A stretch of DNA of 64,000 bases from Eledone cirrhosa (Eukaryota): contig OZ024756.1 in assembly GCA_964016885.1 (NCBI GenBank), positions 31,186,001-31,250,000 on the forward strand, in the 5' to 3' direction. Below are positions 2,870 through 57,195 of this stretch, piece after piece. The position numbers and the translations under genes were made by a program. The notes under the pieces are model-generated. The model did no database searches and was not told where the DNA came from. It worked only from the letters and a program-made list of their open reading frames with translations. Each line of letters opens with the position of its first letter. Within the stretch, counting starts at the first letter, position 1.

Positions 2870-3100
2870 CGTTATTCCAGGTTGAATCGGAGGTAACCAC
2901 AGTAAGTAAGGTACTCAATACATAGCAGAGTATAAAAGTTTTAATATAGATGAGATTCTACAGGACTAGATCTGTTTCATTCTTTAGAAATCATCAGGAA
3001 TCTGGCTTTCCGAACATTTATTTTTGGAAAGCCAGATTCCTGATGATTTCTAAAGAATGAAACAGTTCTAGTCCTGTAGAATCTCATCTATATTAAAACT
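2870..3100 (-). mobile_element. Penelope-like hairpin mini-element, family A (74 bp arms plus ~65 bp tail)
   Basis: Arms 2937-3011 and 3026-3100 are near-perfect inverted repeats; tail 2870-2936; (TA)n on both sides. Confidence 0.85.
3034..3084 (+). ncRNA. Type I hammerhead ribozyme (mirror copy on minus strand 2953-3003)
   Basis: AGATTC-CTGATGA-TTTCTaaAGAAT-GAAA-CAG ttctagtc CTG-TA-GAATCT: intact core, 6 bp helix I, GUA triplet. Confidence 0.85.
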
Positions 3101-4644
3101 ATATATATATATAGTTTTAATATATATATATATATATATATAATATATATATATATATATATATATATATATATATATATATATATATAGAGAGAGAGAG
3201 AGAGAGAGAGAGAGAGAGAGAGAGAGAGAGAGAGAGAGAAATAATTGTTCCCATGAATAACTGTTAATTATATGTGAGTTCCTTGAGGCCAATAAAATAG
3301 GTTATGACTAACAATTCACATGGATTCATTGATTTTATATTACAATTAAAGCTAACAGATTTTATCTATGGGAATAGAATGACTGTAGAAATAATTCTGT
3401 AGCAATTTTTACAAAATCATACCTAATTTTGCCGCCAGATTTAACCATTTTATTCAATTATTAAATTAAACTATATTTGTGTTAAAGTAGTCTGTAACAT
3501 TTTTATTCATTTCTCGATATAGTATACTTTATATATATTTTACTATTTAAGGGTATTTTTTCTTTCTTATTACGTGACAGTAAATTCAAAATGGTCGAAA
3601 TTTACTATAAGCTAAAATATTATAATCAAGAAAAGAAAGAAAAAACTAAGCCGAACTAGTTGTCGTCTTTTTAAAACTATCCGTAGTTGCATTACGTTAT
3701 TTTACCTTAAGTTCCATGTTTCGTGCATTTCTTGTAAACCACAACTCAATCTAAATTATTTTAACCGATTAGTTTTAGATTTTTCCCTTTATTTTTTTCT
3801 TTTTGCCCTTTTTACTTTTATAGTTTGATTCTACGTGTTCTTTTTTGTTTTGTATTTTGTTGCTTTTTTTCCCCTGCAATCTCTCACGAAACATTCTTTT
3901 CATAGTAACAAATGGTATATTTGCTTTTAGCAAATAAAATTATAGAATATATATCGAGAAACATGTTATATGATATGTTTCTCAATATAGATTGTGTCAT
4001 TTGCAATTTTTTTTAAATACACTAACACATATTTTACTGTATATATTACTTTTAAATATATTTTAGTATATAGCTTACTTTCCTTTATATTTCAGTATTA
4101 TAACTTCTTTCTATATATATAGCCGAAATTCGATCTCGCTGAAATTATATTTATATATATATATATATATACATATATATATATACATATATATATATAT
4201 ACATATATATATATATATATATATATATAAAGATGTATAACATACTTATATATGTTATTGTATACTTTACTTTTAAATATATTTTAATGTATAACTTACC
4301 AATATATTCCACTCTATAACTTACCACTGTATATATATTTTTTCAGTGCAGGACTTTGAATAGAGTATGTCTGAATGGTTACAAAATCCTTTCTATAACC
4401 ACACGTTCTTGGTTTCAATCCCACTGCATGACAACCTGAGTAAGGGAAATTTCCCAAAGCCTCAGCTGAAGCCAACGTTTGTTAATTAAATTGTGTCGAC
4501 GAAGCCCTGTCTGTGGGAACAAGTCTTTTGTCAAAGATTAGCCGTCGAACATGAAATGCTCCATACGACGTTATATTTCACAATCATTGTTATATTTCCA
4601 AAAAACAGCAAAGCTTGTATATAATTCTTTTACGTCTATTTTTG

Positions 4645-5585
4645 ATTGCAGTTTTACATTTTGATATAATAATTTGATCAACTATGTTATCTTGTTAGAA
4701 AACTTAAATATTGGTCACGATTCTTGCTTACAGCTTTAAAAAAAGCTTTAGGGCTATGTATTTAAATATACGACCACTTTCAGTATTTTCACATAATAGA
4801 AGTGTTAAGCGACATTTAGACTTTAAATCTACATCCTGCTTCTTCTACGTATTCAATAAATCGTATTTATTTGTATTTAAGTCATTCGATTTCAGAATAA
4901 ACTTTTTTAGTCATTTTGTTATCCTATTTCTAAAGAAAGAAACTGGCTATGGTTTATGTTTTATGAATACCACTTAGCTATTGTATGGGGCAATAGATAA
5001 AAAAAAAGATCCTTACATACAATTATGATTGGATGTTTCTAGATAAATATTAACACTTGTTAGGTATATATATATATATACATATATATATATATAAACA
5101 GCTTTATATATATATATATAAACAGCTTTTATATATATATATATATGTGTGTATATATATAAACAGCTTATATATATAGTATATATATATATATATATTA
5201 TATATATATATATATTATATATATAAACAGCTTTTGTTAAACTTGAGGATGGCCATCTTTCCAATTTACCAATACAAACATACACACTATTTGACTATCA
5301 ATTCAGTTATTGGTTATCCCTGTTCACAGAATGTGTGACGAAAGAACTTTGACAAAATAGCCTATAATTGATTTACTGAATAAGTAGAAAAAGCGTTACG
5401 TAGATCTAAAATCTAAATCTCGCTTAACACTGCTACTAGGTTAAAATGCTGGAGGTGGCTTTATATTAAAATGCATAGCCCTAAAGATGTTTAAAGCTGT
5501 AAGCAAGGATTTTTACCATTATTTCGGTTTTCTAACAAGAAAGCATATTTGATCAAAATATTATTTGAAAATGTAAAACCGCTGT
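4645..5585. repeat. Old diverged long inverted repeat (arms about 4645-4865 and 5370-5585)
   Basis: For example CTTGCTTACAGCTTTAAA / TTTAAAGCTGTAAGCAAG, CTTTAGGGCTATG / CATAGCCCTAAAG and GTGTTAAGCGA / TCGCTTAACAC, all in mirrored order. Confidence 0.75.
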
Positions 5586-5765
5586 CAGAAATAACTGCAA
5601 AAACCGAAATGAAAATCGGGCTGTTTGTGTTTTTAATGTGCAAAATTGGCAAACTCCTCTGATCCTCTCTTTCTCTCTCTCTCTCTCTCTCTCTCTCTCT
5701 CTCTCTCTCTCTCTCTCTCTCTCTCTCTCTCTCTCTCTCTCTCTCTCTCTCTCGCTATGCGTTCT

Positions 5766-6255
5766 ATTTGTGGTTATATCTTAACCAACAAATATTTTAC
5801 TATGCAAATAGTATACAGCTGGTAACGGCTACCTTTCGTGGCGACAATACTCAAATTTTACGAATATTCATATTATTATGTTTAACCCCACGATTTTCCA
5901 TCAAGAATCTTGCAAAACAAATACATATACTTAAAAACAACTTATCTGAAAATTAGTTTCCGGGGGCTTGATATCAGAAAGGTTATTCGGCATTGGTTAT
6001 TTATTTGTCATTATAAATTTACACTGTTGATTACTTCTGTTATACGAATGTGGAAAATTCCTCTTAGAATGTTTAATCTGAAGTAACAAATTCTTCAATT
6101 ACTACTAACATCTCATTTGTGGTTATATCTTAACCAAAAATCATTTTACTATGCAAATAGTATACAGATAGTAACGGTTACCTTTCGTGCCGAGAATACG
6201 CCAATTTTACGGATATGTAAATAGTATGATCAGTTTCAACCCACGATTTTCCATT
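5766..6255 (+). repeat. Direct duplication of ~135 bp (5766-5900 and 6116-6255)
   Basis: Both copies begin ATTTGTGGTTATATCTTAACCAA and end AACCCCACGATTTTCCAT or its close variant. Confidence 0.8.
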
Positions 6256-55150: not shown

Positions 55151-56572
55151 ACTATACATATATATATATATATGAGTGTCTGCAAATAGTAAACAGATAT
55201 AACGAAGCAAGCGGTGCAGTACAACGAAGAAATATTTTGGTTTAACGCGTGATATAGCAGGAAAAGAGTCTTAATCTTACGCACACCAGTTACGTACAGT
55301 TAGTACTTATTTATACAGATTTTTGTCCACTAGGTCTTCATTTCTTTTGCTTTCTTTACTTTGTTTAAACTCCCATGCTGTTCAATCATCTCTTTTCGTG
55401 TTCTATACATGTCATTGTTATCCTTCCTCTCAGTATGTATATGTTTATATATATGGCTTGCCTGTGCATGTGTAAAAAAAATTATATATGTGTGTGTGTG
55501 TGTGTGTGTGTGTAAGAGGGGCTAAACGTGCAAGCGAGAGAGAGAGGGGAGATAGATAGATAGATCGAAACAGAGAGAGGGGTGGGCAGGTAACAACAAG
55601 AGAAATACAGAAACGCACAAAGAATGGGGTGAGATATAATGAGAGTATTAGACAGTGATTAATGGCCGTCTTTGTGGAGAATATATATGCATACATACAT
55701 ACACACACACATATATATATATATATATACACATATGCACCTATGTGTAGTGTATATGTATATATTATGTATTTTTATGAGAATATAAGTGTGTGTTTTG
55801 TGTGAATTTATATCTATACCTATACGCGCAATGTTCCTTTTGAACAATCACAAAGATGGTGCGTGCTAGGATGAAATTTGTTATCTTACTTTTCAATTAA
55901 AAGTCAGACAAACAATTTCTGAACTAACGACTGAATTCCACTTTGGTATTGACGACGTGACATTTAAGAAGATGTTAGTCTCCTGAGGAATTCCTTATCA
56001 AATCTCTTGTTACTATTACTATTGCTTTCCTAGACGACTGCCCATTAATGTCCTTTAATACTTGTCCATCCATTTGTCCGGAGTGAAGGCGTCCAGATTT
56101 GAGGTTAGCGTGATCGTCTCCCCATTGTAAGTTCGTGAGTTCGAATCCAGGGTCATGCAACATGTTTTTATATGAAGCTGTATAAGTTGGCTCAACTTAA
56201 AAGTAGAAATAGAATTTAGCTTCAGTATAACATTATACTTATATGTATGTGGAGTTCGTGTATCTAAAGATATACTGTATGTTTCATGAATAAACATTTT
56301 GAAAGTCCAGCTATGAATATTGAAATACTAACGGTCAGCTCCGTCTAGTGGATTCCAGAAGAAGCAGCAAGGGATAACTGTCTATACGTTAGCTGATGGC
56401 TCTCATCATGACAGTGCATCCTAAGGGAAGATGGAACTTGAAAACAGCTTCTTATGCAAATGAGGCTAATCAGCCTACCTACATTATATATATATATATA
56501 TGTGTGTGTGTGTATGTGTGTGTATGTATGTATATATATATATATATATATATATATATATATATAAGTGAA

Positions 56573-56785
56573 GGGGTGTGGCTGAGTGGTTAGAGAATTG
56601 GATTCGCAATCATAAGGTTGTGAGTTCGATTCCTGGACCAGGCGATGCGTTATGTTCTTGAGCAAGACACTTTATTTCACGTTGCTCCTTCTACCTGGAG
56701 TTGCTACCGATAGATAATATTAGCAATTGGAAAGACCAACGGAAACATTGTACCCTCGGTCCGATTTGACGAAAGTCGATCGTTC
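56573..56785 (+). mobile_element. tRNA-derived SINE family 2 (CORE-like box)
   Basis: TGGCTGAGTGG, GAGTTCGATTCC, TTGAGCAAGACACTTT; homolog of 40065-40275. Confidence 0.82.
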
Positions 56786-56843
56786 CTTTATATATATATA
56801 TATAAATATATATATTTATATATATATATATATATATATATAT

Positions 56844-56915
56844 AAGTAGTATCACAACAACAGTTATTTCACCATACCGAGAACAAATGTTTCACCTTAC
56901 GGATCTTCAGCTCAG
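56844..56915 (-). mobile_element. Family G single arm with hammerhead
   Basis: Minus strand GAG-CTGAAGA-TCCgtaaGGT-GAAA-CATTTG-TT-CTC. Confidence 0.78.
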
Positions 56916-57195
56916 TCATATATATATGCAGAGAGAGAGAGAGAGTCTGCGCTCCTGAAAAGTTGGAGGGGCACTAACCGTGAGAGTACTCTCTCAATGC
57001 TTGAGGAAATGCAGTGTGGGTATAGGGATCGGTAAAACGCCAACCTCGTTTCAAGCGGTTGCAGCCTGGCGACTTGCGTCCGGAATTTACATATTTCTCT
57101 TTCTCTCTCTCTCTTTCTCTCTCTCTCTCTATATATATATATTTCATTCTCTCTGTCTCTCTGTCTCTCTCAGCGTATATATATATATATATATA

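Follow-up and report, generated by a model that had tools for sequence, protein, structure and literature searches.

The window analysed here is a 64,000-nt stretch of microsatellite-rich DNA of Eledone cirrhosa (GCA_964016885.1, contig OZ024756.1, positions 31,186,001 to 31,250,000, forward strand). It contains several families of short elements, named A, B, F, G and K, which are inserted into (TA)n (for B, also genome-wide) and behave like the ends of Penelope-like elements (PLEs) of the Hydra clade, of which they are putative members. An earlier note on this DNA had drawn attention to a heptamer, GAGTRCY, found in the element tails at about 40–50 nt from the (TA)n junction. We report that this heptamer belongs to a base-paired hairpin, that the hairpin is duplicated in the 5′ leader of Hydra-clade loci, and that element copies end 3–5 nt upstream of it, which suggests a role in the initiation of reverse transcription.

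Elements of the window

The elements and hairpins are listed below in order of position. The E values refer to a covariance model built from 32 hairpins that all lie outside the window.

2870–3099 (−): family A element with inverted 5′ arm, type I hammerhead, hairpin, 40-nt tail remainder and (TA)n on both sides; from the sequence
2910–2931 (−): bulged hairpin and motif of this A element, ACTC/GAGT, three inner pairs, TT bulge, ACC; model E 0.024
2975–2997 (−): hammerhead core of this A element, CTGATGA..GAAA, stems I–III by eye; inverted copy at 3040–3062 (+)
7186–7367 (+): family B element with inverted arm, hammerhead 3′ half and tail; hairpin 7296–7322, model E 4e-4
13642–13834 (−): family B copy, hairpin 13687–13713; pairing and model match
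25861–25974 (+): tail-less family B copy, ending before the hairpin position; from the sequence
36772–36963 (+): family B copy, hairpin 36892–36918, with a stem mismatch at 36907 that is absent from most reads of the species; reads and model
37292–37349 (−): uncertain; limited to an outer stem, GTACTC/GAGTGC, that encloses a long insert and has a different bulge geometry; pairing
38452–38625 (+): family B copy, hairpin 38554–38580; best model match, E 1.2e-4
42114–42166 (+): family F long-stem hairpin, present in the minimum-free-energy fold and missed by the model
44488–44524 (+): family K hairpin, GCTC/GAGC then TAT; variant hammerhead core at 44397–44427; model E 0.26
45006–45145 (−): degenerate family B copy with a mutated motif; weak model match, E 3.8
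45903–46165 (−): family G element, hammerhead core 46013–46034, inverted copy 46102–46123 (+), hairpin 45940–45962 with a 1-nt bulge; weak model match, E 2.2
53751–53940 (+): family B copy, degenerate hairpin 53869–53895; model E 0.34
54166–54343 (−): family A copy, hairpin 54206–54227; pairing and model match
56845–56917 (−): G-like hammerhead fragment without tail, core 56890–56910; from the sequence
56951–56975 (+): uncertain; GGGCACT in a possible hairpin, several pairs of which are G-U; missed by the model
57196–57367 (−): family A copy, hairpin 57236–57257; pairing and model match

An inverted 5′-truncated copy and an optional tail are present in A, B and G, the sense arm being longer than the inverted one; the copies at 25861 and 56845 lack this extension. 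Families A and G each have a full type I hammerhead core, once in sense and once inverted. The window copies of B show the 3′ half only, because the inversion point lies inside the ribozyme, and in all of them the inversion falls on the same spot. Family K, which had been overlooked in the earlier note and was recovered by the covariance model, spans 44349–44590, 44757–44890, 47510–47640, 12100–12190 and 12720–12800; its hammerhead-like core has CCGAAGA in place of CTGANGA, and its hairpin is followed by TAT in place of RCY. No hammerhead was found on the same strand upstream of the F hairpin at 42114–42166 or for the site at 56951, and none was seen at 37292–37349 (−).

The two B ends of the window recur genome-wide: in reads of run X18 mapped to a B copy, (TA)n follows position 36886 in 2,954 reads and positions 36975–36976 in 1,047 and 4,089. 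Other genomic B copies, with joints at 36822–36938, have the inverted arm fused to points internal to the tail and skip the sense ribozyme. We set aside 7,135 reads ending at 36833, with loose ends just upstream, as a probable restriction-site effect (AATT in a restriction-site-associated DNA library). No PLE open reading frame (ORF) was found in the window, and none was linked to B through the read ends listed.

A diverged A-like copy at 54779–54910 (+) has a decayed tail with AAGTACC. Other families are represented by hammerhead-like cores, or variants of these, after which no hairpin was found; they are located at 63321–63348 (+), 58710–58737 (−), 43338–43360 (−), 37527–37568 (−), 42019–42035 (−), 47829–47845 (+), 18121–18143 (+) and 11851–11882 (+). 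Several of these have (TA)n 22–60 nt past GAAA and may be tail-less ends.

The heptamer is one arm of a bulged hairpin

All the motif strings quoted in the earlier note are present in the window at the positions it gave. The bare GAGTRCY is not enriched, with 21 matches against 16.85 expected, a number reached in 20 of 100 shuffles. A (TA)3+ run lies 37–46 nt downstream of 10 of the 21 matches (40 nt in three A copies, 45 nt in five B copies, 37 nt in G and 46 nt at the 42160 site), the background chance being 0.033 per site. The corresponding P values, uncorrected for the post hoc choice of the motif, are ∼4e-10 counted per match and ∼6e-4 with one count per family (4 of 13 entries; a recount gave 12 entries). 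The spacing is thus non-random. The 38–47 nt to the element end that the note had claimed agrees with A, B, G and the 42160 site and does not apply to the 56984 site, where (TA)n is 57 nt (minus) or 139 nt (plus) away and only a (CT)n run lies at ∼40 nt; the 37291 site, 76 nt from (TA)n, had already been named as an exception.

GAGTRCY constitutes the 3′ arm and the three following bases of a hairpin of the form NCTC-stem-loop-stem-NN-GAGN-RCY. ACTC is found upstream of GAGT, with an inner stem between them and a bulge of 2 nt (1 nt in G). The tails had been described as otherwise dissimilar; this pairing of the upstream arm and inner stem had been overlooked. Nor are the families unrelated, as was first thought, since all are Penelope-like ends with a common hammerhead-to-hairpin layout. 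The hairpin is present in 8 of the 28 GAG[TC]RCY matches of the window, all inside elements (three A, three B, G and 42160); two further matches are B copies broken by point changes, and 18 have no hairpin. Most reads over the copy at 36892 carry the base that restores the stem (2,996 of 3,162 and 8,483 of 8,674). The 56984 and 37291 sites fit the pattern poorly: GAGTACTC at 56984–56991 adjoins the possible hairpin at 56951–56975 and has no pairing arm. The covariance model gave 12 window matches at E up to 5, of which the top seven were three A and four B copies, followed by K, a B copy, one match outside recognised elements, G and the degenerate B copy.

The hairpin in Hydra-clade loci

The Hydra clade comprises PLEs with a C-terminal endonuclease (Craig et al. 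2021, PMC8557442). We collected 120 metagenome loci (L001–L120) with a degenerate pattern for the C-terminus of the Hydra endonuclease, a criterion that is blind to non-coding sequence. A hammerhead core lies within 450 nt in 71 of them. The upstream RCTC and the first inner pair accompany 35 of 40 GAGYRCY matches in two non-coding zones versus 21 of 151 elsewhere, and some of these 21 are further copies. Nine loci have intact ORFs of 699–717 aa (pairwise identity 41–89%, median 48%), and the ORFs of the loci carry RWK, DKT and CxCX5C, plus CxxC and CxH around the endonuclease. Searches of Pfam and PDB sequences gave no match to the Hydra-clade proteins, and nothing emerged from three pattern scans over viral contigs. 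The hammerhead of L010 and its flanks match, by eye, the Penelope-1_NV row in the available part of File S2.

Pairing was counted on 30 hairpins, obtained by excluding the five zone matches without hairpin and collapsing near-identical sequences. Inner pair 1 is paired in all 30 (T-A 15, C-G 12, T-G 3), pair 2 in 21 and pair 3 in 25, and the counts for pairs 1–3 were never attained in 20,000 permutations; at pair 4 the result is marginal (15 of 30, p 0.05). The bulge is TT in 20, TC in seven and TA in three. When the two variants of L073 are added, 98.5% of 203 cells are paired, whereas slid controls reach 20–55%. None of 500 shuffles attained this pairing or the covariation score, and 31 of 500 attained the number of pairs changed on both sides, in a test whose structure is derived from the same sequences and whose shuffles take no account of kinship. 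The change from T-A to C-G at inner pair 1 arises in three separate places on a tree of 25 loci. A covarying RNA structure, which the earlier note had suggested looking for, is present in these hairpins. All 30 hairpins carry a G-C outer pair; L073 has U-A twice, and the window has A-U. Most relatives have GAGCACT rather than GAGTRCY. Among six published Hydra-clade consensi inspected by eye, in the form available, Hydra-2_Amil and Hydra-2_Ajap show a clear hairpin at the 3′ end, and Hydra-1_Ajap has it twice at the 5′ start. Judged from these sequences, a hairpin with matched base changes is a recurrent feature of many PLEs of sea animals.

The heptamer might be a functionless relic, shared by ancestry or by chance and chosen post hoc. 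Its lack of window-wide enrichment, the probable relatedness of all carriers and the misfit of two of the sites first reported would suit such an origin. However, compensatory changes recur on separate branches among proteins that are mostly 41–61% identical and whose surroundings have diverged, and a model built from other organisms finds the window copies. The pairing, shuffle and tree results already largely refute this explanation, which we regard as very improbable.

Two hairpins and the ends of copies

Seven of the nine intact-ORF loci have two motifs, 56–71 nt apart, in the 5′ leader; the exceptions are L073, which has two variants, and L005, which is truncated there. The contig of L063 starts inside its first motif, and the second motif of L010 contains a single outer mismatch. 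The order is hammerhead, hairpin 1, hairpin 2, ATG, with the first ATG 15–21 nt past hairpin 2 in six of the seven leaders. The hammerhead-to-hairpin distance is 43–78 nt in the loci and 43, 44, 50 and 60 nt in A, B, G and K. In L017 and L076, both hairpins are read through into the next ORF. An RNA 3′-end formation signal, the second role proposed in the earlier note, is unlikely and was rejected, because tandem and full-length copies continue through both hairpins into the ORF.

Copy ends were mapped as the distance from the end of homology to the next hairpin. Gaps were allowed, because ungapped mapping did not separate genuine ends from breaks at indels and from low-complexity matches. The distances are 1, 3 (seven times), 4 (four times), 20, 23 and 43 nt, i.e. 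1–4 nt in 12 of 15 comparisons. When a locus is compared with its own leader, the offset is 4 nt in each of L063, L069 and L074. In the window, four B arms stop 5 nt before ACTC, an end shared by 2,954 raw reads, and a fifth, with a mutated ACTC, at 13 nt; the A offsets are 4, 0 and −1 as computed, or ∼4–5 by eye if overlap with (TA)n is allowed; that of G is 4–7 nt. The K sister copies near 44757–44890 and 47510–47640 (minus) end just before the hairpin, inside a TATATA run that finishes 3 nt before it. TA occupies positions −6/−5, 4 nt before the stem, in 16 of the 30 hairpins (4.3 expected). What is tightly spaced is the element end, 3–5 nt upstream of a hairpin, and not the downstream distance to (TA)n. 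Since motif 1 and hairpin 2 are separated by 34–44 nt in the loci and the window tails measure 37–46 nt, the original 40–50 nt probably corresponds to the distance to a second, uncopied hairpin.

The paired hairpins could instead be 5′-leader signals for transcription, translation or packaging, the nearby ends arising indirectly, for example through RNA breakage or an AT-rich priming patch. The position of hairpin 2 just ahead of the first ATG is in line with this proposal, as is the location of PLE promoters in the pseudo-long terminal repeat (pLTR), according to the available part of PMC6765202. It does not predict, though, the equal offset of 3–4 nt at both hairpins, other AT-rich patches are unused, and hairpin 1 is retained in short ORF-less families. 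We consider this explanation quite improbable.

A predicted role in starting reverse transcription

The structure follows from covariation, and the duplication in the 5′ leader and the geometry of the ends are direct observations. We estimate at about two in three the probability that the hairpin, in the element RNA, is the site bound by the reverse transcriptase (RT)-endonuclease protein to start reverse transcription 3–5 nt upstream. The earlier proposal of a conserved cis-signal for this protein stands as the best reading and is upheld in independent data, the unit being a base-paired hairpin rather than a 7-mer. A read-through transcript of a tandem copy would carry both hairpins. The protein bound to one of them would nick the (TA)n target, whose 3′ end would pair with the upstream UA as primer; the TA found upstream of the hairpin suggests such a short pairing. 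With priming at that point, the hairpin directing a start would stay uncopied. Initiation at hairpin 1 would leave the end without a tail, initiation at hairpin 2 would produce a tailed end holding hairpin 1, and the use of both sites in a single insertion would produce the inverted arm plus tailed arm of the window. The window families would then be truncated or non-autonomous members with an A-U outer pair.

The main rival is that the GIY-YIG endonuclease reads the hairpin or motif in DNA and cuts 3–5 nt upstream while resolving a transposition intermediate, so that the ends are set by cutting. Such cutting would account for the same fixed offset, and the motif is nearly palindromic. In the parts available to us, PMC8557442 ascribes the tail to endonuclease-mediated resolution, and PMC11167929 reports that the Penelope endonuclease of D. 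virilis needed the tail to recognise plasmid DNA. On the other hand, covarying stems with widely differing loop lengths imply a single strand, the TA 4 nt upstream corresponds to the repeat at the target, and in the sole clade tested both ends are RT start sites (PMC11167929, available part). The strand evidence is mixed: the excess of G-U over A-C among the pairs (9 versus 1) favours the sense strand, and for 22 of the 30 hairpins the antisense strand has the more stable fold. Overall, we judge DNA cutting unlikely, if less so than leader signals.

Several results, to which the antisense stability belongs, weigh against an RT start at the hairpin. The binding and priming role itself is a prediction from sequence. 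RNAalifold by itself recovers the outer four pairs and not the inner stem, and the inner stem of hairpin 2 is often a single pair. All 30 collapsed hairpins have GCTC/GAGC and none the ACTC/GAGT of the window, where the covariance model gave no match at 42114 (F), 37291 or 56951. In the published consensi, as available and by eye, the Crog hairpin is imperfect and those of Amil1 and Obim (two of six) are not clear. Of the 53 loci whose sequence sufficed for a comparison, only 15 have a relative (≥88% identity) that extends beyond them, and three of these 15 comparisons end 20–43 nt from the hairpin; ungapped, 9 of 27 ends fall at 3–4 nt, most of the others looking like indel breaks or diverged relatives. 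Finally, none of the families A, B, G, F and K could be joined to an ORF or to a further hairpin within the window or, for B, among the 20 of 620 loose-end rows listed from the reads.

More tentatively, and with considerable doubt, the ∼25-nt hairpin could be a portable RT-positioning tag. Any RNA with UA 4 nt before it might be copied into (TA)n by a Hydra-clade protein; ORF-less families would multiply in trans, the duplication would cause the tail, and the binding surface would be the counterpart of the contact that telomerase makes with its template boundary.

Relation to known systems

The window elements resemble the Hydra clade, as documented in the available part of PMC8557442, in (TA)n targeting, the inverted 5′ copy and the optional tail and, for A and G, in a canonical type I hammerhead core; they differ from it in having mostly ACTC/GAGT and in being ORF-less within the window. 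The available main text of that study contains neither ‘hairpin’ nor ‘stem-loop’ and leaves the tail to endonuclease action, and the hairpin is visible in its own consensi. For the Poseidon RT of Anolis carolinensis, the sections available of Frangieh et al. 2024 (PMC11167929) describe two internal starts that bracket the tail, a requirement for RNA 3′ of the starts, AT-rich targets and no signal shared by the two sites in vitro. Those starts lie in an AC-rich stem-loop, 111–118 nt into the ORF, with no cross-family structure named, and start site and target were reported to share no homology. The Hydra loci, in contrast, have the sites in the 5′ leader, a duplicated conserved hairpin after each, and TA able to pair with the target. 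Compared with the hammerhead ribozymes themselves, whose motifs in A and G lie 43–50 nt upstream, the hairpin is outside the ribozyme, 3′ of stem I, and the text covered on these ribozymes does not mention it.

The telomerase template-boundary element and hepadnavirus epsilon are small stems bound by an RT at a fixed distance from the start or stop of synthesis. The likeness is an analogy only; here the stem is 3′ of the first templating base.

Other classes fit the window elements less well. A Naiad origin was rejected on the canonical hammerhead in A and G. Retrozymes of the non-LTR kind (LTR, long terminal repeat) consist of tandem units arranged head to tail, every one of them with a type I hammerhead (10.64898/2026.07.22.740005 and PMC7229834, as available), and the window copies are dispersed, single or inverted. 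A miniature inverted-repeat or terminal-inverted-repeat transposon was discarded as well: in tailed copies one arm is extended by an unrepeated tail, and the ends obey the hairpin rule. In Rfam, no match reached the gathering score among the best 150 of 343, which were only microsatellite and fold-back noise.

The hairpin, clear in some Hydra-clade consensi, was not clearly seen by eye in 47 published Naiad 3′ ends, of ∼160–280 nt each as available, and within 700 nt after the stop it was found in 0 of 34 match records of 30 loci with a non-Hydra PLE-type endonuclease, 16 of which come from one assembly and whose clades were judged by eye. Run on 24 of these 30 loci, the model gave three matches, the single strong one in L137, in a separate (TA)n-flanked mini-element ∼2.7 kb from the ORF of the locus. 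Besides a hammerhead and TA runs in its interior, this mini-element (L137:280–620, −) has a textbook hairpin, the end of which lies ∼33 nt ahead of (TA)n. Tentatively, the hairpin looks restricted to the Hydra clade. In the available sequence of Naiad_Mmer (PMC8557442, File S5), a look-alike was seen by eye inside the element, at ∼530 nt from its end; the sequence ahead of it resembles the family A hammerhead in reverse complement, and this is possibly an inserted Hydra-like fragment. Some assemblies of a prokaryote genome collection (L121–L150) contain contigs with animal-type Penelope elements, likely host contamination.

PLE remnants with hammerheads and tails are already known; the hairpin is a new cis-element in this known class. 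No description of it or of the 3–5 nt rule was found in the literature searched, although Repbase, Dfam, the Zenodo octopus library, bioRxiv supplements and figure images, which were outside the coverage, may mention the motif. The choice of internal starts in PLEs and the optional tail have been an open question since the class was described. A covarying hairpin that is present twice, with ends 3–5 nt before each, offers a concrete rule that can be tested with mutant RNA templates, and its duplication would explain the long-noted tail. In the annotation of genomes rich in microsatellites, the hairpin also provides a means of recognising genuine ends and Hydra-like repeats that lack an ORF. 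According to the available part of PMC8557442, PLE RTs are relatives of telomerase, and the hairpin bears on RNA recognition in its closest retroelement relatives.

Other repeats in the window

A 5′-truncated non-LTR ORF at 27133–28845 (+) (Pfam RVT_1, E 6e-9), which we take to be R4/Dong-like, lies right after a (TAA)n run and is partially repeated at 28940–29510. A tRNA-like short interspersed element (SINE) occurs in both orientations at 1–180, 16531–16930, 21325–21495, 23690–23890, 29520–29690, 37720–37910, 51205–51400 and 54955–55150, one copy being a 197-nt tandem pair, and a second SINE-like family is found at 40065–40270 and 56567–56785; these SINEs are presumably octopus-like. A 24-nt minisatellite (22 copies, 99%) is located inside a SINE copy at 34882–35408, and a 10-nt array and an AT-rich array cover 40651–41003 and 61715–62240, respectively.

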